Shown: in pieces, positions 22,029 through 36,519 of the stretch | Position numbering within the stretch: the first letter of the stretch is position 1 | Layout of the letters: each line of letters begins with the position of its first letter | NCBI GenBank assembly: GCA_001001285.1 | Contig: LCKG01000003.1 | Location: 27,746-91,745, forward strand | Origin: Parcubacteria group bacterium GW2011_GWC1_45_13 | GTDB lineage: Bacteria; Patescibacteriota; Minisyncoccia; UBA11713; 2-01-FULL-45-33 | Length of the DNA: 64,000 nt | Reading direction: 5' to 3' | Notes under the pieces: model-generated | Database searches by the model: none | What the model saw: only the letters and a program-made list of their open reading frames with translations | Told to the model about the DNA's origin: nothing | Made by a program: the position numbers and the translations under genes

Positions 22029-22622
22029 ATGCCGGAAATTTTCACAAAAAAGAATATAACGATTTTACTCACTGTTTTATTTCTGGGAGCTGTTATATAC
22101 ATAAGCTTCGGATTTTTGCCGGTTCTTAAAGTTGAGGGGACATCGGTGAGCTATTCAGAATTTCAAAAAGTTTACGGCGCGATCGGCTCTTTTGACAAGA
22201 TTTCCAGAAAACCTGACCCTGCAGGTGGCGGTGGGAACAGCGCGGCGCCGGAAGAGATGAAAAAAATGGCTCTGGAAAGCATTATAGAAAGTAGGCTATT
22301 GGACGAACTGATAAAAGAAGCAAATCCGGAGCTCGCGAAAAAAGCCGAAGAGATTCTGCAAAAAACATTGCTGGAAAATAAAAATTTGTCTTTAGACGAG
22401 GCTTCCAAGATCCTTTACGGGATTTCAGCGGCTGATTTTCAAAAATTGGTTTTATTGCCGCAGGCAAAAAAAGATGCGCTGACGGATTATTACGAATCCA
22501 ATCCGGAGCGCCTGGCCGACCTCTGGACGGCACTCCTAAAAAGCGCTAAAGTGCAAATCTACTACCCGGGATTTTACTGGGAGAACGGAGAAGTTCACCC
22601 CGTTAGAGATTCATCACGCTGA
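22029..22622 (+). CDS. Hypothetical membrane-anchored protein (SurA-N-like?)
   Basis: N-terminal TM then a helical domain. Stop overlaps the start of the next gene (TGATGA). Confidence 0.5.
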   Translation: MPEIFTKKNITILLTVLFLGAVIYISFGFLPVLKVEGTSVSYSEFQKVYGAIGSFDKISRKPDPAGGGGNSAAPEEMKKMALESIIESRLLDELIKEANPELAKKAEEILQKTLLENKNLSLDEASKILYGISAADFQKLVLLPQAKKDALTDYYESNPERLADLWTALLKSAKVQIYYPGFYWENGEVHPVRDSSR

Positions 22623-22882
22623 TGATTTATACTTATGTCATAAAAAGCAGGAAAGATGGCAAATGGTATGCTGGGTCAACCAATGATTTACGGAAGCGTT
22701 TTAACGATCATAATCGTGGACAAGTTTTTTCCACAAAAGGAAGGAGACCGTTTGAGTTGATATACTATGAAGCTTGTTTGGACGACCATGATGCTCGAGT
22801 ACGCGAAAAGTATTTAAAATCAGGCCCAGGCAAAAGATACTTGAAAAATAGATTAAAACGCTCCCTATCTCTAACGGGGTAA
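22622..22882 (+). CDS. GIY-YIG nuclease superfamily protein (YhbQ/UPF0213-like)
   Basis: YTYVIKS…GKWYAGSTNDLRKRFNDHN…ELIYYE carries the GIY…YxG…R…H…E signature. 86 aa. Confidence 0.75.
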   Translation: MIYTYVIKSRKDGKWYAGSTNDLRKRFNDHNRGQVFSTKGRRPFELIYYEACLDDHDARVREKYLKSGPGKRYLKNRLKRSLSLTG

Positions 22883-22893
22883 AAATTGAATAA

Positions 22894-22964
22894 GCGGGTA
22901 TGGTTTAATGGCAGAATGATTGCTTCCCAAGCAATAGATCGGGGTTCGATTCCCCGTACCCGCA
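22894..22964 (+). tRNA. tRNA-Gly (anticodon CCC)
   Basis: Cloverleaf: acceptor GCGGGTA/TACCCGC, anticodon loop TTCCCAA, T-arm CGGGG-TTCGATT-CCCCG. No encoded CCA. Confidence 0.85.
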
Positions 22965-31277: not shown

Positions 31278-32525
31278 TTATTTCCTGAAAAATCCGCTGC
31301 GGCCGCCGTAGGACGGGCGCGCAAGGCCGCGGCCGAAGCGTTTGTGCGAAAAATGCCGCGGGATGATTTTGTATTCTATGAATTTTTCTTCCGAAAATTC
31401 CGGGTGTTTGGATATCGCAATCACTGTGCGAAGAAGCTTTTCAATATCGCGAACGGCGCTTTTTTGGTCGGGCGTCGCGAAAGATATCGCCCGCCCAGGC
31501 GCGCCGGCCCGTCCGGTGCGCCCTATCCGGTGGACATAATCTCCTGGATTATCCGGCAAGTCGTAATTAAGAACAAGTTCAATCCCCACAACGTCGATTC
31601 CGCGGGAGGCAATGTCGGTTGCCACAAGCACGCGGTATCTTCCGGACTTAAATCCATCCAGCGCCTCCCGGCGTTGGATGAGCGAGCGGTTGGAATGGAT
31701 CTCGGCGACCCTATGCCCCATATCTCTCACGGCGTTGCATATTTTTCTTGCGCCGTGCTTGGTGCGGGAAAAAATCAAAACCGACCCGCGGTATTCGACA
31801 AGAAGCTTTGTGAGTAATTTATTTTTATCTTCTTTTTTTACGATAAATAATTCTTGTGCTACCTTCTCCGCGGCCGTCCCCGGGCGGGCAATCTCAATCC
31901 GGAAGGGGAGCTTCATGTGCTCTGTTGCCAAGCGCACGATGTTGTCTGGCATTGTCGCCGAAAAAAGCATGGTTTGCCGGTTTTTCGGGACTTTATTTAA
32001 AATTTGTTTTAATTGCGGTAGAAATCCCATATCCAGCATTCTGTCGGCTTCATCCAAAACCAGTATTGAAATGCCGTCCAAAGAAAGCACTCTTTGTTCC
32101 ATGTGATCAATAATCCGCCCTGGTGTTCCTATTATAATGTGGGGCTGGCGGCGAAGCGCGTCTATTTGTGGGCGCATGGACGCGCCTCCTATAATAAGCG
32201 CTGTTTTGAGGCCAAGGTTCCGGCCGATTTTTTGCAGCATTTCTTCCACTTGTTGCGCCAGCTCCCTTGTCGGCAAAAGAATCAGCCCCTTGGCTTTTGT
32301 CTGGGCAATGCGCTGGATCATTGGGACGCCGAATGCCAAAGTTTTGCCAGTGCCGGTTTGCGCCACGCCGATTAAGTCCTTTCCTTCAATCGCGGCAGGG
32401 ATCGCGCGCGATTGTATCGGCGTAGGCGTTTTGAAACGGAGTTTTCCAAGAATTTCCAAAAGCGCCGGGGCGATGCCCAAACCGTAAAAACTCTTGGTTA
32501 TGTTTTCGCTAGCGCGTTGATTCAT
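31278..32525 (-). CDS. DEAD-box ATP-dependent RNA helicase
   Basis: Q-motif, AQTGTGKT, PTRELA, DEAD (VLDEADRM), SAT, HRIGRTGR. Gly/Arg-rich C-terminal tail. Confidence 0.9.
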   Translation of the reverse strand: MNQRASENITKSFYGLGIAPALLEILGKLRFKTPTPIQSRAIPAAIEGKDLIGVAQTGTGKTLAFGVPMIQRIAQTKAKGLILLPTRELAQQVEEMLQKIGRNLGLKTALIIGGASMRPQIDALRRQPHIIIGTPGRIIDHMEQRVLSLDGISILVLDEADRMLDMGFLPQLKQILNKVPKNRQTMLFSATMPDNIVRLATEHMKLPFRIEIARPGTAAEKVAQELFIVKKEDKNKLLTKLLVEYRGSVLIFSRTKHGARKICNAVRDMGHRVAEIHSNRSLIQRREALDGFKSGRYRVLVATDIASRGIDVVGIELVLNYDLPDNPGDYVHRIGRTGRAGAPGRAISFATPDQKSAVRDIEKLLRTVIAISKHPEFSEEKFIEYKIIPRHFSHKRFGRGLARPSYGGRSGFFRK

Positions 32526-32654
32526 AAGCGGTAATTAATCATCAAACCTTAGCACGAAATCGGTTTGTTTCCAAATGCCCCCGAGGGGTGTTATAAGTAT
32601 AATCAAAGGTCGGGAATTTATATTTAACTGAAAATTAACAAAAAATAAATCAAT

Positions 32655-33149
32655 ATGATAAAGAAAATTTATTCGGCTCTGGCGGTTTCAGCTTTGTTTT
32701 TGGCCGCAAGTGTCGCTTTAGCGGCAGGCGGTTTTGACCAATTCGGATATAATCGCACAGCCAGGATTTTCAACGGCACAGGTAGCTCTTGGTGTCTAGC
32801 GCGCGGAGCTTCGGCAAATTGCCTGGGCATCTACTCGCCAGACAAGCTTGTGATGAAATGGAACGCAGAATGGGACAGAGGAAACGCGGAAGGGTGGACT
32901 GACCCGAATGGTTACGGAGCGTGGGAAGACAATGAATGGAATGGGAAAAACGGCGGCTCGGGCGCTGTCTGGCACTATAAAATAAAATGGGTTGGAGCAT
33001 GCGGCGCCGACTACACGCCTTTGCCGGACGGCGGTTATTGCATCTGGGGGCAGTTTGAAGTTTTGATGGACCAAGGGCAGGACCCGAATTACGGCCCAGG
33101 CCATCTCTGGTTTGCCAATGCGCTTCCAAACGGCTACGGAGTGAAATAA
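32655..33149 (+). CDS. Hypothetical secreted Trp/Gly-rich protein
   Basis: Signal peptide MIKKIYSALAVSALFLAASVALA. 164 aa. Confidence 0.55.
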   Translation: MIKKIYSALAVSALFLAASVALAAGGFDQFGYNRTARIFNGTGSSWCLARGASANCLGIYSPDKLVMKWNAEWDRGNAEGWTDPNGYGAWEDNEWNGKNGGSGAVWHYKIKWVGACGADYTPLPDGGYCIWGQFEVLMDQGQDPNYGPGHLWFANALPNGYGVK

Positions 33150-33166
33150 TTTCTGACTAACAAATC

Positions 33167-33193
33167 AAAAATCCGCCGAGAAGGCGGATTTTT
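33167..33193. terminator. Bidirectional rho-independent terminator
   Basis: AAAAATCCGCC-gagaa-GGCGGATTTTT between convergent genes. Confidence 0.65.
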
Positions 33194-33215
33194 GTTTGGG
33201 CTCAAGCTTTCCGGC

Positions 33216-33347
33216 TTATTTAATCTGTTTCCAGAGCCAGACTATGAGCATAATCCCGACGACAAGCCAGACCAGCTCGCTTATCCAGCCGAACGCACTC
33301 CCGTATCCGCCTCCCCAGCCCATCATGTTTCCGTAGTAATTCATCAT
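33216..33347 (-). CDS. Small Gly/Trp-rich membrane peptide (43 aa), hypothetical
   Basis: MMNYYGNMMGWGGGYGSAFGWISELVWLVVGIMLIVWLWKQIK. The terminator lies directly downstream. Not in the ORF track, which lists an overlapping plus-strand ORF instead. Confidence 0.35.
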   Translation of the reverse strand: MMNYYGNMMGWGGGYGSAFGWISELVWLVVGIMLIVWLWKQIK

Positions 33348-33447
33348 TGGTTTATAGTAACACTAAACTACTATGAAGTCGAAGTGCCGACCTCTTTGAT
33401 ACTTTTTATTTTATCTATTTTGATGCTCTTCGGATGGATAGCGGATA

Positions 33448-33729
33448 TTAAAAGAAAATAAAACTAATCAGCCAAGCAATTCCTCCACTACCAATAGAAA
33501 GAATGCCAAACATGACGATGGCGGATGTATTCACAAAATTTGCTTCTCCTCGTATGAGGTTTCCACTCATACTCGCCATTTTCCCGATAAAAGCTAATAG
33601 CAATCCAATTAGTATCCCCACGACGGCACCAAATATAGAGCCGGCATTGATAGTAAACCCAAAAGCTAAACCCCATAATAAACCACTGACAGCCCCGATA
33701 AGGGCACTGAAAATAATGTTTGCAAACAT
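33448..33729 (-). CDS. Hypothetical glycine-zipper membrane protein
   Basis: 93 aa with GxxxG repeats across about 3 TM helices. Confidence 0.5.
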   Translation of the reverse strand: MFANIIFSALIGAVSGLLWGLAFGFTINAGSIFGAVVGILIGLLLAFIGKMASMSGNLIRGEANFVNTSAIVMFGILSIGSGGIAWLISFIFF

Positions 33730-33778
33730 AGTTTTATTTTATCACAGCGACGCTTCTCGGAACATGTAAACAATATAT

Positions 33779-34573
33779 TTATCTAAGAATTAGCTTTTCA
33801 ATACTATCGATTATTTGAATCGGGTCGCCTGTTAAGATCTTGTTGTCATATAAATCTTTGGTAAAAGCTAAACATATTTTTACTGCTTCTGTCGCAACAA
33901 AATCACCATCATCTCCGTCATGAAAAAATATCTTTCCATATTCATCTTTCCCAATAAATTCTTGAAATCCTTCAATATTCAAATGAGCTACTGGCGATAA
34001 CTGTCTATAGATCAAACTATACATACGTTCAAAATGTCCTTTTTCGGAGTTTTTTACTTCTTCTTTTTCGCACAATTTAGCTTTTTCTTGAAGAGACTTA
34101 GTACCTTTAAGGTCTGGATTGCCTTTTAAAATTGCTTCTTTGTGAATTTTTTGGTCACCAATAGCTCGTTCTAAGTATTTTTTATTGAACAATTGTTCTT
34201 GATTTGTAGATTCGAGGTTTGGATATCTTTTTATCAGATTCAGTATTTCCTCCAATATTGTTATTCGTTCACAAAACATTCTTTTTGCTGAAAAAGCGAG
34301 TCTTTGCTCAGAATTTCCAAACTGATGATAGATAATGTCTATGTGGGCTTCAAATAGCGCTCTAAGTAAAACTTTGGCTACATGAGATTTTCTATTTTCA
34401 CATAAAATTATTATTGATTCAGTAAAACTGAATACTGGGTGGTGAGCAAAATATATATAATTTTGCAAATGAGTATGCCTGCTAGTATCGATATTGTTAA
34501 GCAGATCCTTGATTTCTATTTTCAGCTTCAAAAATTTTTTCTTTAGTTTTCTTATGTATTCTGCTTTTTCCAT
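33779..34573 (-). CDS. Hypothetical protein (possible HEPN-like Rx5H motif)
   Basis: 264 aa. Contains LLRALFEAHIDIIYH (R-x5-H). AT-rich. No firm family assignment. Confidence 0.5.
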   Translation of the reverse strand: MEKAEYIRKLKKKFLKLKIEIKDLLNNIDTSRHTHLQNYIYFAHHPVFSFTESIIILCENRKSHVAKVLLRALFEAHIDIIYHQFGNSEQRLAFSAKRMFCERITILEEILNLIKRYPNLESTNQEQLFNKKYLERAIGDQKIHKEAILKGNPDLKGTKSLQEKAKLCEKEEVKNSEKGHFERMYSLIYRQLSPVAHLNIEGFQEFIGKDEYGKIFFHDGDDGDFVATEAVKICLAFTKDLYDNKILTGDPIQIIDSIEKLILR

Positions 34574-34602
34574 ACGTATTTAAAGCTCCTTGAAGTCCGA
34601 AC

Positions 34603-34860
34603 CTATCTCAAGCTGTTTTTATTTATTAAATTTAATTTCTTCTCTCTGCGCCAGCCTTTTATTTCGGTTTCACGGCGGCGAGCTTCTTTTAAAGTGGTAA
34701 ATTTTTCAAAATAACGCAATACCACCGGACGCCTTAGTTTTGTAAAATGCGCGCCCCATTTGGAATTATTGTGTTGTTCTAGTCTTCTTTCTAAATTATT
34801 TGTGCAACCAACGTAAAAAGATTTATCGGCGCACTCTAAAATATAAGTGAAATAAAACAT
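34603..34860 (-). CDS. GIY-YIG nuclease superfamily protein (YhbQ-like) paralog 2
   Basis: FYFTYILECADKSFYVGCTNNLERRLEQHN… 85 aa. Confidence 0.75.
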   Translation of the reverse strand: MFYFTYILECADKSFYVGCTNNLERRLEQHNNSKWGAHFTKLRRPVVLRYFEKFTTLKEARRRETEIKGWRREKKLNLINKNSLR

Positions 34861-34939
34861 ATTTTTTTGGTATCTCTTCGTCGTTAAAACTCCTCAGAGC
34901 CTTCTTCGCTCTGTTTTAAATGTCGAAGATCCTGATGAG

Positions 34940-34998
34940 CGAAGCGAAGAAGGGCTGCGGGACTAGGATTCGGACCTAGATTACACGGTTCAGAGCCG
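34940..34998 (-). pseudogene. Degenerate tRNA-Gln-like 3' fragment (anticodon arm CUG + T-arm + acceptor 3' strand)
   Basis: Minus strand reads CACGG-CTCTGAA-CCGTG TAATC CTAGG-TCCGAAT-CCTAG TCCCGCA G. The T-loop has C at position 55 and no D-stem partner, so it is a fragment. Confidence 0.4.
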
Positions 34999-34999
34999 T

Positions 35000-35040
35000 G
35001 CGCCCCAGCCTTTTCGGCGGGTCGCCGAGGAGGCGACTAC
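35000..35040 (-). repeat. 41-nt direct repeat X, copy 2 (two small hairpins: TCGCC-N5-GGCGA and CCCGCC-GAAAA-GGC(T)GGG)
   Basis: About 36/41 identical to 35422..35462. Both copies are preceded on the minus strand by GGTAG. Confidence 0.6.
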
Positions 35041-35055
35041 CACTTCCGCACAAAA

Positions 35056-35126
35056 CTGGGAGGCCTGGATTCGAACCAGGGTTATGCGGTTCAGAGCCGC
35101 ATGTCCTACCGCTAGACGACCTCCCA
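35056..35126 (-). tRNA. tRNA-Gln (anticodon CTG)
   Basis: Reverse complement: TGGGAGG TC GTC TAGCGGTAG GAC A TGCGG-CTCTGAA-CCGCA TAACC CTGG-TTCGAAT-CCAGG CCTCCCA G. Flanked by a perfect 14-bp inverted repeat (35042..35055 and 35128..35141). Confidence 0.85.
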
Positions 35127-35145
35127 GTTTTGTGCGGAAGTCTTT

Positions 35146-35421
35146 TTACTCCATTAAATAATTTTTCAACTTACCTTTTAATACTTCTCTACCATATCCT
35201 GTTTTATAAAATTTTTCTCCGGTAGTTGCATCTTTCTTGTCTAAATACGCTTCATAATATATTAGTTTGAAAGGCCTGTTTTTACTGGAATATCCGCCGC
35301 CCTTGCCGGAGTTATGTTCTGATACTCTCTGTTTTAAATCTTCGGTAAAGCCAACATAATTTCGGCCGTTTTTCAAACTTTTTAATACATATACGTAAAA
35401 CATGATTTTTATTGAAGCCAT
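35146..35421 (-). CDS. GIY-YIG nuclease superfamily protein (YhbQ-like) paralog 3
   Basis: …MFYVYVLKSLKNGRNYVGFTEDLKQRVSEHN…FKLIYYE. The true start may be the second ATG (35403). Confidence 0.75.
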   Translation of the reverse strand: MASIKIMFYVYVLKSLKNGRNYVGFTEDLKQRVSEHNSGKGGGYSSKNRPFKLIYYEAYLDKKDATTGEKFYKTGYGREVLKGKLKNYLME

Positions 35422-35462
35422 GCGTCCCCGCCTTTTCGGCGGGTCGCCGATGAGGCGACTAC
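35422..35462 (-). repeat. 41-nt direct repeat X, copy 1, immediately 5' of GIY-YIG paralog 3
   Basis: See copy 2. Preceded (35459..35479 on minus) by a tRNA 5'-half-like sequence TGCGGGATCGTCTAACGGTAG. Confidence 0.6.
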
Positions 35463-35579
35463 CGTTAGACGATCCCGCAATAATGCGTATAATATGTAGA
35501 GGTTAGCAAAAAAATTTTGGTTTGACAAAGTTTAGACATTTGTTAATGTTTAAGTGGTTTTGATTTTTGGGAGGTGCGC

Positions 35580-35748
35580 AATGTCACATGACAAGTTAAG
35601 AGATAGGATTCAAGTATGGTTTGTCGCGTTTGTTTTGTTTATTGTTGTTTTGGCTGGCATTATAATCGGCCGTCTCGTGCACCAAGGAGCTCTCCGCTCA
35701 GGAATAAATCAGATAACAGATTCAAACAGCAAGGGGCCGGCTAAATGA
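35580..35748 (+). CDS. Hypothetical small membrane protein
   Basis: 55 aa with one TM. Promoter-like TTGACA-16-TAATGT at about 35522..35550. Confidence 0.35.
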
Positions 35749-35793
35749 AAGCCGGCTATTTTTTGTTTTAATTACGCAACAATTTCTTATTTT

Positions 35794-36519
35794 GTGAAGT
35801 TGACCCCGTTAGAAGTAAACTTTATAAATAAGGTTGCCGATGTGTTGTCCACATATCGGACTTCTAACGGGGTTGACTCTAAAATTAATCGGATTAGACT
35901 TCCACTTATCAATATGTTTGACGAGCTGAAACAAAGGGCGCTCAAAATTACTGAAGCGTTATACCGGACGACCGACCTTTTTTCAGACGCAGAGCCCTTG
36001 AAATGGGCTTTAAGAAAGGAAGCTCTGGAAGTGTTAAACGTCAAACCCCAAGATGTTGTATTGCTTGAGGCTACGGTAAAAAACATATTGCTCAAGCTGG
36101 AGCTGGCTGCCTGCGGGACGTTCATTTCTAAGAAGAATTTCGATGTTTTGGGTAGGGAGTATAAAAGTTTGCTGGAAGAAGTTATGTCAGGCAAATCCGA
36201 TTACCGGCATCTATTGGACACAATTCTAATGGACATAAAATCTAACGGACGAGCAGATACATCTATCGGACACATTGAAGTTAAATCTAAATCTGCGGTT
36301 GTTTTGAAACCCAGTAACAGACCCACCTTTCGGTCGGGCAGGCAAGAAACGCTAATTTCAACATTAAAAGAAAAGGGTCGCTTGAGTGTTGGAGATTTAG
36401 CCAAGGCGCTAGGGGAGCCGGTCAGCGACAAAACAGTCCAAAGAGAGCTTACAACATTAGTAGCTTCGGGGGCGGTAAAGCAGGACGGAGACAAGCGCTG
36501 GAGGAGATACTTTATTTAG
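35794..36519 (+). CDS. Hypothetical protein with C-terminal DeoR-like winged HTH
   Basis: C-terminal …RQETLISTLKEKGRLSVGDLAKALGEPVSDKTVQRELTTLVASGAV. N-terminal domain unassigned. Confidence 0.5.
   Translation: MKLTPLEVNFINKVADVLSTYRTSNGVDSKINRIRLPLINMFDELKQRALKITEALYRTTDLFSDAEPLKWALRKEALEVLNVKPQDVVLLEATVKNILLKLELAACGTFISKKNFDVLGREYKSLLEEVMSGKSDYRHLLDTILMDIKSNGRADTSIGHIEVKSKSAVVLKPSNRPTFRSGRQETLISTLKEKGRLSVGDLAKALGEPVSDKTVQRELTTLVASGAVKQDGDKRWRRYFI

Follow-up and report, generated by a model that had tools for sequence, protein, structure and literature searches.

The locus described here lies in a 64,000-nucleotide stretch of contig LCKG01000003.1 of Parcubacteria group bacterium GW2011_GWC1_45_13 (the whole stretch is called the window), a Parcubacteria/Giovannonibacteria-type bacterium of the candidate phyla radiation (CPR) from groundwater. 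In it, two halves of a tRNA-Gln gene stand on either side of a block that holds the open reading frame (ORF) of a small GIY-YIG nuclease and a complete second tRNA-Gln gene. A first-pass annotation of this DNA had listed tRNA halves, two direct repeats (X1 and X2), GIY-YIG ORFs, an intact tRNA and a perfect 14-bp inverted repeat, and all of these features were found on the minus strand, to which the coordinates of the locus refer.

The resident tRNA-Gln(CUG) gene was opened after position 21 of its D loop (...GGTAG|), where a block of about 455 bp with ORF1 and a tRNA as its gene content now resides. The 5' part of the resident gene (a1, 35459..35479, TGCGGGATCGTCTAACGGTAG), recognised from the sequence itself, runs from the 5' strand of the acceptor stem to the D loop ...GGTAG, comprises tRNA positions 1-21 (TGCGGGA TC GTC TAACGGTAG) and shares 81% identity with the same part of the inner tRNA. 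It is followed by X1 (35427..35458), identified from the sequence and by repeat search, a 32-nt double hairpin (TCGCC-TCATC-GGCGA plus CCCGCC-GAAAA-GGCGGG) that forms the left end of the inserted block, and by b1' (35416..35426), likewise read from the sequence, which consists of tRNA positions 22-33 (GAC G CATGG CT), ends in the anticodon loop and is a fossil tRNA piece carried along with the block. ORF1 (35146..35403), recognised through PF01541, is the gene for an 85-amino-acid single-domain GIY-YIG nuclease of the UPF0213/SLX1 type. The replacement or cargo tRNA behind it, an intact inner tRNA-Gln(CUG) (35056..35126), matches the Rfam model RF00005 over its full length with 63 bits (E 9e-13), and ARAGORN agrees; its acceptor stem, TGGGAGG/CCTCCCA, is unlike that of the outer halves. 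This tRNA stands between the arms of the inverted repeat, which repeat search and folding place at 35128..35141 (left arm, ACTTCCGCACAAAA) and 35042..35055 (right arm, TTTTGTGCGGAAGT). The 14-bp repeat is perfect and, together with the acceptor stem, gives complementary arms of 22 nt; for the 100-nt RNA of inverted repeat and inner tRNA, the folding energy is -59.8 kcal/mol (z = -9.0).

The right end of the block is formed by GGTAG and the second double hairpin, X2 (35005..35041, repeat search; X2 proper, 35005..35036), which differs from X1 by 2 mismatches. The direct repeats, previously given as 41 nt long, are present but have a true length of 48 nt, with 92% identity and a distance of 422 nt, and comprise GGTAG, then X, then positions 22-33 of the tRNA. 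When the window is searched with a 33-nt sequence derived from X1, allowing up to 3 mismatches, exactly 2 copies of X turn up, where shuffled sequences lead one to expect 0. Directly after X2 comes the tRNA-Gln 3' part (b2c2, 34955..35004), identified by Rfam and by ARAGORN after joining, which extends from the 3' strand of the D stem to the discriminator G and contains the anticodon arm with CUG, the T arm with a TCCGAAT loop and the acceptor 3' strand TCCCGCA, complementary to the TGCGGGA at the 5' end of a1. The outer 3' part by itself (35018..34963) scores 27.5 bits as a tRNA in Rfam over model positions 10-63, against a gathering score of 29. When a1 is joined to b2c2, ARAGORN calls a tRNA-Gln(ctg) with a weak D stem and the T loop TCCGAAT. 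The earlier proposals that the outer halves belong to one resident tRNA-Gln gene, and that the insertion brings a complete replacement tRNA and a GIY-YIG gene, both of which lie inside the block, were upheld. Both tRNA-Gln copies of the locus begin with a T, whose partner is an A at the 3' end with a G after it; this is the bacterial tRNA-Gln pattern.

An assembly artefact was ruled out, since 7 contigs from six samples (JGI, ENA) agree in every base of a 1300-bp region. One NCBI contig agrees save for a 41-bp gap upstream of the locus, and another contig begins within the locus. Standard annotation tools report the inner tRNA alone, and the short ORF is sometimes extended into tRNA sequence (as in the 91-amino-acid call of ORF1, and in P0107, which reads into the tRNA).

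Empty, filled and decayed sites in related genomes

A profile from 26 homologues retrieved 104 relatives in a single scan of 185,579 species genomes, and 80 loci from distinct species genomes of Parcubacteria, Microgenomates and other Patescibacteria were compared; counts use the 79 with a readable ORF, and individual loci are given by L numbers. For the site itself the neighbouring helix-turn-helix (HTH) gene served as synteny anchor, the site adjoining the HTH gene and a PG_binding gene. It is filled in the window and in L013, L014/L010, L093 and L011. It is empty in L095, a complete 651-kb Giovannonibacteria genome (CP066687.1) with an uninterrupted tRNA-Gln(CUG) and with neither X nor a GIY-YIG gene, and L217 is likewise uninterrupted at the syntenic site, so that the comparison of empty and filled sites suggested by the first-pass annotation came out in favour of an insertion. 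L216 (1181-1260, minus strand) is a decayed case: of the nuclease gene no more than the final ~15 codons (…EIVKGKLKNYLISNS*) are left, fused to the upstream region before the tRNA, and its tRNA-Gln is intact, of the resident type and flanked by a 7-bp inverted repeat (GCAAGCC/GGCTTGC). The tRNA-Gln next to the HTH gene has been lost in L094, L096 and L218, where synteny look-ups were uninformative. Among related genomes, the nuclease gene is polymorphic for presence and absence at one site.

The edges of the insertion are sharpest in the comparison of L095 with L014. A 28/28-nt match ends at GGTAG, exactly where X1 starts, and a 21/21-nt match begins from GAATCCTAGCCCCGCAGCCAA (X2|GAATCC...), exactly after the last base of X2. 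Because the match breaks precisely at the edges of X1 and X2, L014 has a block bounded by X1 and X2 in place of positions 22-56 of the tRNA. In L014, what follows X1 (GACACACGGCT) is unlike the resident sequence of the empty site (GCCATGCGGCT) and resembles the cargo tRNA, and it therefore belongs to the block. In L013, L014 and L093 the outer gene is devoid of positions 22-56. At four loci (the window, L014, L015 and L056), moreover, each outer half is complementary to the other, whereas both are unlike the inner tRNA, which is hence an import. Between L014 and L093, the inverted repeat shows one compensated and two uncompensated changes.

The block also bears signs of recent horizontal movement. 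Between the window and L013, 72/77 aligned nt agree in the tract from a1 to the ATG (a nested 22-nt hairpin is present in L013 only) and 253/258 nt (98.1%, synonymous divergence dS 0.064) in ORF1, against 29/61 in the promoter region, 62/100 in the inverted repeat with the inner tRNA, 49/67 from X2 to c2 (the 3' end of b2c2) and ~66% identity in the flanking HTH gene. The block identity of 98% versus ~66% in the flanks points to horizontal spread and indicates that the part from X to the nuclease gene was recently exchanged between diverged genomes at the same site; the mobility of the GIY-YIG block, implied by the homing or integrative element proposed earlier, is supported by the 253/258 nt that ORF1 shares with its counterpart in L013. 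The ratio of nonsynonymous to synonymous substitution rates (dN/dS) of ORF1 is 0.05-0.08 in four comparisons (L013, L014, L093 and L011), and the nuclease gene is accordingly functional and under purifying selection.

The nuclease family and the double-hairpin repeat X

Both GIY-YIG genes of the locus match PF01541 well above its cut-off of 22.6 bits (ORF1, E 1.4e-16, 61 bits; ORF2, E 3.7e-19, 69 bits), and the two proteins share 35% identity. A longer reading of ORF1 of 91 amino acids (to 35421) starts inside b1', and the homologues begin at the ATG of the 85-amino-acid form; residues Y5, Y16, R26, H30 and E63 are invariant in the 26 homologues. The nearest sequences with solved structures are those of the UPF0213 proteins BH0048 and EF2693 (1zg2, E 9e-9; 1ywl, E 2e-7), followed by SLX1. 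An AlphaFold (AF2) model of ORF1, with a pLDDT (predicted local distance difference test) of 91, has a three-stranded sheet and helices, and Foldseek matched it best to UPF0213 and to the Slx1 nuclease domain (7cq3, template-modelling score 0.70, root-mean-square deviation 2.1 Å), with I-TevI and UvrC N-terminal domains lower. By sequence and model, ORF1 is a predicted nuclease of the UPF0213/SLX1-like and not of the I-TevI-like kind. According to the titles of its PDB entries, Slx1 is a structure-specific nuclease for branched DNA, and therefore X as a hairpin or cruciform is a plausible substrate of the ORF1 nuclease. The protein is all catalytic domain, without a joined DNA-binding or recognition domain as in I-TevI or the Seg proteins. 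With the NCBIfam model of group I intron endonucleases ORF1 reaches 21.8 bits against a cut-off of 56, PADLOC gave no defence-system match, and PHROGs returned weak N-terminal matches to GIY-YIG homing enzymes and nothing more.

Across Patescibacteria the gene keeps company with tRNAs and with X. A tRNA on the same strand starts -23 to +60 nt from the stop codon at 62/79 loci, the stop often lying in the tRNA D arm; these tRNAs are for Gln (50), Gly (5), Pro (4), Ile (2) and Ser (1). X occurs within ~60 nt upstream of the ATG at 59/79 loci, and a second X follows the tRNA at 18. The sequence before X is a tRNA 5' fragment, usually of the same type as the tRNA downstream (Pro before tRNA-Pro, Gly before tRNA-Gly), and at a few loci X follows the end of a protein gene instead. 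For 8 of the 12 ORFs beside a non-Gln tRNA the nearest relative stands next to a tRNA-Gln, and the gene has therefore switched tRNA type repeatedly. Tandem units of fragment, X and ORF are found in L023, L071 and L188 (spacing 338 nt in the last). Inverted repeats of at least 9 bp surround 14 of 68 nuclease-adjacent tRNAs versus 0 of 26 other tRNAs, and most of the 14 belong to loci with two X copies. Literature searches on GIY-YIG with tRNA-Gln, Patescibacteria, YhbQ, UPF0213 and CPR D-loop insertion returned no description of this arrangement, which is apparently undescribed.

X itself was followed in a metagenome scan whose pattern left one stem pair free and so gave an unbiased test of the stem; among the matches listed, to which the counts out of 125 and out of 114 copies refer, there are 125 copies on at least 119 contigs. 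The free pair is C-G in 94 copies, T-A in 26, A-T in 1 and non-Watson-Crick in four (one of them T-G). Other stem changes are compensatory as well, both in hairpin 1 (TCGCC/GGCGA, CCGCC/GGCGG, TTGCC/GGCAA) and in hairpin 2 (CCCGCC/GGCGGG, CCTGCC/GGCAGG, CCCACC/GGTGGG, CTCGCC/GGCGAG). The two-hairpin structure thus follows from covariation and not from energy: folded in its RNA context, X1 does not adopt two hairpins as its minimum-energy form, with a z of only -2.2. At the consensus level hairpin 2 is an inverted copy of hairpin 1. A single long hairpin was considered and gained no support, since the loops are complementary at the consensus level only and the middle base does not covary.

Of 114 copies of X with adequate flanks, 21 precede a GIY-YIG gene of the ORF1 subfamily. 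Another 22 stand at most 80 nt from a tRNA (Thr, Trp, Arg, Pro, Gly, Met, Gln) without an intervening ORF, 3 lack a GIY-YIG gene but have a tRNA 81-450 nt downstream, and for the remaining 68 no tRNA lies within 450 nt. The tag before X is GTAG in 47/125 copies and NNAG in most. Further sites of X are T loops, after GGTTC (L051, L065, L068, L070, L088), and the end of a protein gene. A scan of viral contigs for X gave no match and hence no sign of phage origin. Judged by this distribution, X is a generic Patescibacterial repeat similar to repetitive extragenic palindromic (REP) sequences and not a target-site duplication, so that the direct repeats of the window, which had been taken for duplications made by the insertion, must be read otherwise: X is mostly found away from GIY-YIG genes. 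The finding that the repeats are generic, named beforehand as a reason to drop the insertion idea, changes the meaning of the repeats but leaves the conclusion that a tRNA gene was invaded standing.

Further hairpins are nested in the tRNA fragment or in X, such as GCCTGCCTGCGCAGGCAGG in the 5' fragment of L016 and L017 and the 22-nt hairpin in loop 2 of X1 in L013, which suggests that several families of hairpin repeats insert into one another. In L026, L033, L037, L063 and L092, a protein gene with the ending ...EIMGGKVVE is followed by X and the nuclease gene, or has its 3' end cut by them; they are inserted at GG|GAAA, which resembles the tRNA sites GGTAG|GAC and GGTTC|GAATCC. The T loop TCCGAAT of the outer 3' part in the window (34963-34985, minus strand) recurs in the inner tRNAs of L014, L029, L033, L075 and L077. 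It places C at the near-universal U55, and several of its carriers are ARAGORN-called and apparently the sole tRNA-Gln genes of other Patescibacteria. A motif resembling CTCGCTTCGCTCGCTCATGGC recurs directly 3' of tRNA ends in L036, L013 and L091 and in the window (34925-34950, minus strand).

Other features of the window surround the block. Between the tRNA 3' end and ORF2 lies a long hairpin with a perfect 11-bp stem (34900..34953; repeat search and folding), and ORF2 (34603..34860; Pfam) is a second single-domain GIY-YIG gene of a different subfamily. Members of this subfamily also follow tRNA 3' ends in L031, L074, L111 and L212; they stand just 3' of the tRNA end behind a long hairpin and then CTCTGAG, the hairpin of L031 being similar to that of the window. 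The ORF2 type may represent a second, independent tRNA-associated cassette. A third single-domain GIY-YIG ORF of the window (22622-22964, plus strand; 86 amino acids, ~45-60% identity to members of the ORF1 family) has an ATG that overlaps the stop of a 197-amino-acid ORF upstream and ends 11 nt before a tRNA-Gly(CCC), with neither X nor a tRNA fragment; placement just 5' of a tRNA thus extends to relatives without X. The neighbours of the locus are a DUF5677 gene, the HTH protein gene and a gene for a small membrane protein, and beside the DUF5677 gene a DEAD-box helicase gene and a RelB/ParE toxin-antitoxin pair adjoin (window 31278-34573 and neighbours). From the tRNA site to the helicase, gene content varies among relatives, and this part is therefore a variable region.

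In addition, Rfam hits in 34000-36200 with E up to 10 were confined to tRNA and to chance miRNA and sRNA hits, with no known ribozyme, intron or sRNA.

Interpretation of the locus

With moderate confidence, we read the locus as a site filled by a small selfish DNA cassette whose targets are the tRNA genes of Patescibacteria. Recurrent switching of tRNA type, decay of the nuclease gene in one relative, and split next to intact alleles are what the genomes display. In the scheme we propose, the nuclease, probably structure-specific and acting on the X hairpins or on the GTAG site of the D loop, would break DNA in or next to a tRNA gene, and recombinational repair, guided by homology to the tRNA sequence on either side, would copy the cassette in. 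Expression of the ORF would depend on read-through from the tRNA promoter. The cargo tRNA would supply the cell, so that the broken resident gene, otherwise a lethal insertion, could be tolerated, and once resident positions 22-56 were lost, as in L014, the host would depend on the cargo tRNA. Since the rebuilt tRNA would retain the target, repeated invasion could follow, and tandem and nested copies as well as tRNA fragments would accumulate.

The arrangement of the window would then be a nested invasion trimmed by deletions between repeats. This is suggested by b2c2, which is 75% identical to the inner tRNA of the window and 94% identical to that of L014 and, despite this likeness to a cargo tRNA, ends with the resident acceptor strand. 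The single insertion event originally envisaged is therefore retained as far as the invasion of a tRNA gene is concerned but gives way to nested invasion and deletion in its course. The 14-bp inverted repeat may be a repair scar, left by snap-back synthesis at the joint of ORF and tRNA, or alternatively a clamp, which would prevent mispairing of the cargo tRNA with the duplicated halves. Two other ideas were rejected. Simple homing with the resident tRNA as right homology arm fails at loci with two X copies, where the inner tRNA is of foreign origin and the 3' end of the resident gene is still present downstream, and remnants of acceptor strands as the source of the inverted repeat fit the window and L066 and fail in L016, L018 and L091.

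Several points weigh against the selfish cassette. Both the cleavage activity of ORF1 and its target are predictions, and an 85-amino-acid protein without a DNA-recognition domain is unlike the proven GIY-YIG homing enzymes. A promoter scan of the minus strand upstream of a1 found no consensus promoter; TTGTCAAA-type motifs, seen by eye and unscored, are present in the window, L010 and L011, similar in L216 and degenerate in L095 and L217. X is far commoner than the nuclease gene (21/114 copies with a GIY-YIG gene, 68/114 without a tRNA), has just two copies in the 64-kb window, is separated from the ORF by target-derived bases, and may be mobilised by another enzyme, dead tRNA copies being no more than places where it settles. 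In the cargo tRNA the GGTAG|GAC site is still uninterrupted, and the scheme does not account for immunity to re-cutting. Furthermore, no known mechanism explains how the fragment upstream of X usually comes to match the local tRNA after a change of tRNA type.

A broader idea, which we consider possible but rather doubtful, is that X and the small GIY-YIG protein form a new mobile system, analogous to REPs with their RAYT (REP-associated tyrosine) transposases and using a different enzyme. An SLX1-like, structure-specific nuclease would cut GTAG-tagged double hairpins and so mobilise solo hairpins as well as the DNA between two of them, the D loops (...GGTAG) and T loops of tRNAs would be natural landing sites. 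By bringing a spare tRNA, the element could disrupt single-copy tRNA genes that are essential in minimal genomes, and the host would come to depend on it.

Less probable, and in our view unlikely, is the coincidence of two independent parasites, in which X is an autonomous mini-element of the REP or REPIN (paired REP) kind, inserted by some other enzyme after (G)TAG in dispensable DNA, the GIY-YIG gene, selfish or belonging to the host, is free-standing and independent of X and settles just 5' of tRNAs, and their adjacency reflects a common niche and not a unit. The many contexts of X without a tRNA or without an ORF (68 plus 22 of the 114) would be expected under this view, as would the GTAG before 47/125 copies and the NNAG before most, recalling GTAG-tagged REPs (PMC3733652), the third GIY-YIG gene of the window 11 nt before a tRNA-Gly without X, and the target-derived bases between X and ORF. 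It sits poorly with an X within ~60 nt upstream of 59/79 genes of this subfamily, with the movement of X and ORF as a single 98%-identical tract, with the tandem repetition of the whole fragment-X-ORF unit at 338-nt spacing in L188 and with the block of L014 bounded exactly by two X copies; nor was a transposase gene recognised among the ORFs scanned beside the locus, the wider window being outside that scan.

We judge it quite improbable that the locus is a stable, vertically inherited operon, in which a tRNA-like leader (5' fragment and X) regulates or processes a host GIY-YIG repair nuclease and the tRNA. The polymorphism and the decayed copy at one syntenic site, the identity of 98% versus ~66%, the patchy distribution (104 relatives in the scan of 185,579 species genomes), the switching of tRNA type, and the tandem and nested copies with their tRNA debris all contradict it, even though the order of leader, ORF and tRNA is highly conserved with the ORF stop often inside the tRNA, the ORF is under strong purifying selection, and the leader usually matches the local tRNA as expected of a regulator that acts by pairing.

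Least credible of all is a solution at the RNA level, in which the outer halves are a functional split or intron-containing tRNA and X1...X2 is removed or the halves join in trans in an archaeal-like manner: the halves are complementary and their joined form is called a tRNA, in L018, L027 and L091 the 3' part outside does not differ from the inner one or is the better partner of the 5' fragment, and the inverted repeat would bring distant parts of a transcript together, but the junctions are direct repeats that cannot form a bulge-helix-bulge, Rfam, searched up to E 10, shows no signal of a group I or II intron, an outer gene without positions 22-56 (L013, L014, L093) cannot yield a tRNA, in the outer 3' part of the window the D stem is mismatched and T-loop position 55 is a C, and the locus has an intact tRNA-Gln(CUG) in any case.

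Although the genomes of Patescibacteria are tiny and have few genes to spare, these bacteria would tolerate a parasite that breaks essential tRNA genes and brings its own copy. If nuclease and hairpin do cooperate, the widespread UPF0213 GIY-YIG family, whose function is unknown, would gain a testable activity, a second class of enzymes would stand beside the RAYT transposases in the mobility of hairpin repeats, and part of the tRNA fragments and "tRNA-like" debris in Patescibacteria genomes would be accounted for.

Comparison with known systems

The nearest analogue of the proposed cassette is SegB of phage T4, a free-standing GIY-YIG homing endonuclease gene in a tRNA cluster (PMC2330249). 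The two have in common a GIY-YIG gene among tRNA genes that is polymorphic for presence and absence at one site, is preferentially inherited horizontally together with flanking tRNA sequence, and goes through a cycle of invasion and decay. The differences are that the cassette protein is an 85-amino-acid catalytic domain, nearer to UPF0213/SLX1 than to I-TevI and with a predicted activity, that the cassette lies inside a split tRNA gene and not between genes and is tied to a double hairpin and a replacement tRNA, and that it is chromosomal in Patescibacteria, with no match in viral contigs. The homing element proposed at the outset is supported by the presence/absence polymorphism and the horizontal spread, but not by the protein, a bare catalytic domain of 85 amino acids without a DNA-binding domain.

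Patescibacteria also harbour group I introns that interrupt tRNA genes, some with endonuclease genes, and here phylum and interrupted gene class are shared. These introns occupy the anticodon loop (35/36) of tRNA-Asn and tRNA-Asp, have a ribozyme core and encode HNH enzymes, whereas the cassette has no ribozyme signal, a D-loop site after position 21 and a GIY-YIG enzyme; a recent survey of such introns mentions neither tRNA-Gln nor GIY-YIG.

REPtrons, that is REP or REPIN sequences with their RAYT, appear to resemble X in several ways (PMC3733652, PMC3116915): the hairpins are short, GC-rich and often GTAG-tagged, they form inverted doublets dispersed over the genome, copies flank the gene of a small nuclease-type protein, and G-T pairs and compensatory stem changes occur. 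In single-stranded DNA, REPs with a GTAG tag and REPIN doublets are cleaved at that tetranucleotide by RAYT transposases (PMC3733652). In contrast, the gene associated with X encodes a GIY-YIG protein and not an IS200/IS605-type tyrosine (HUH) transposase, X copies flank it in direct and not in inverted orientation, and X strongly prefers tRNA D and T loops and has a low density (2 in 64 kb).

With tRNA-integrating islands and prophages, the cassette has in common the tRNA target, an element-borne sequence that preserves function, direct repeats at both ends and a displaced tRNA fragment left behind. In contrast to these elements, the block has no tyrosine or serine recombinase gene and measures only ~0.45 kb, the cassette carries a whole tRNA gene and not a displaced 3' part, and its repeats are D-loop GGTAG with X and positions 22-33 and not an attachment site at the tRNA 3' end. 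The term integrative element, used for the locus before, is hence inappropriate in its usual sense, as the block lacks an integrase.

A seemingly comparable logic is found in fungal mitochondria, where at atp6 of Allomyces an endonuclease ORF invades an essential gene and supplies a replacement, the old part being left as a fragment; small mobile double-hairpin elements occupy the same mitochondrial genomes. This resemblance concerns another domain of life, another target gene and other sequences.

The cassette thus differs from each of these families in a defining feature, having no recognition domain, no integrase, no RAYT and no ribozyme. By analogy, it behaves like a free-standing homing-endonuclease cassette that combines traits of tRNA-targeting islands and of REPtrons.

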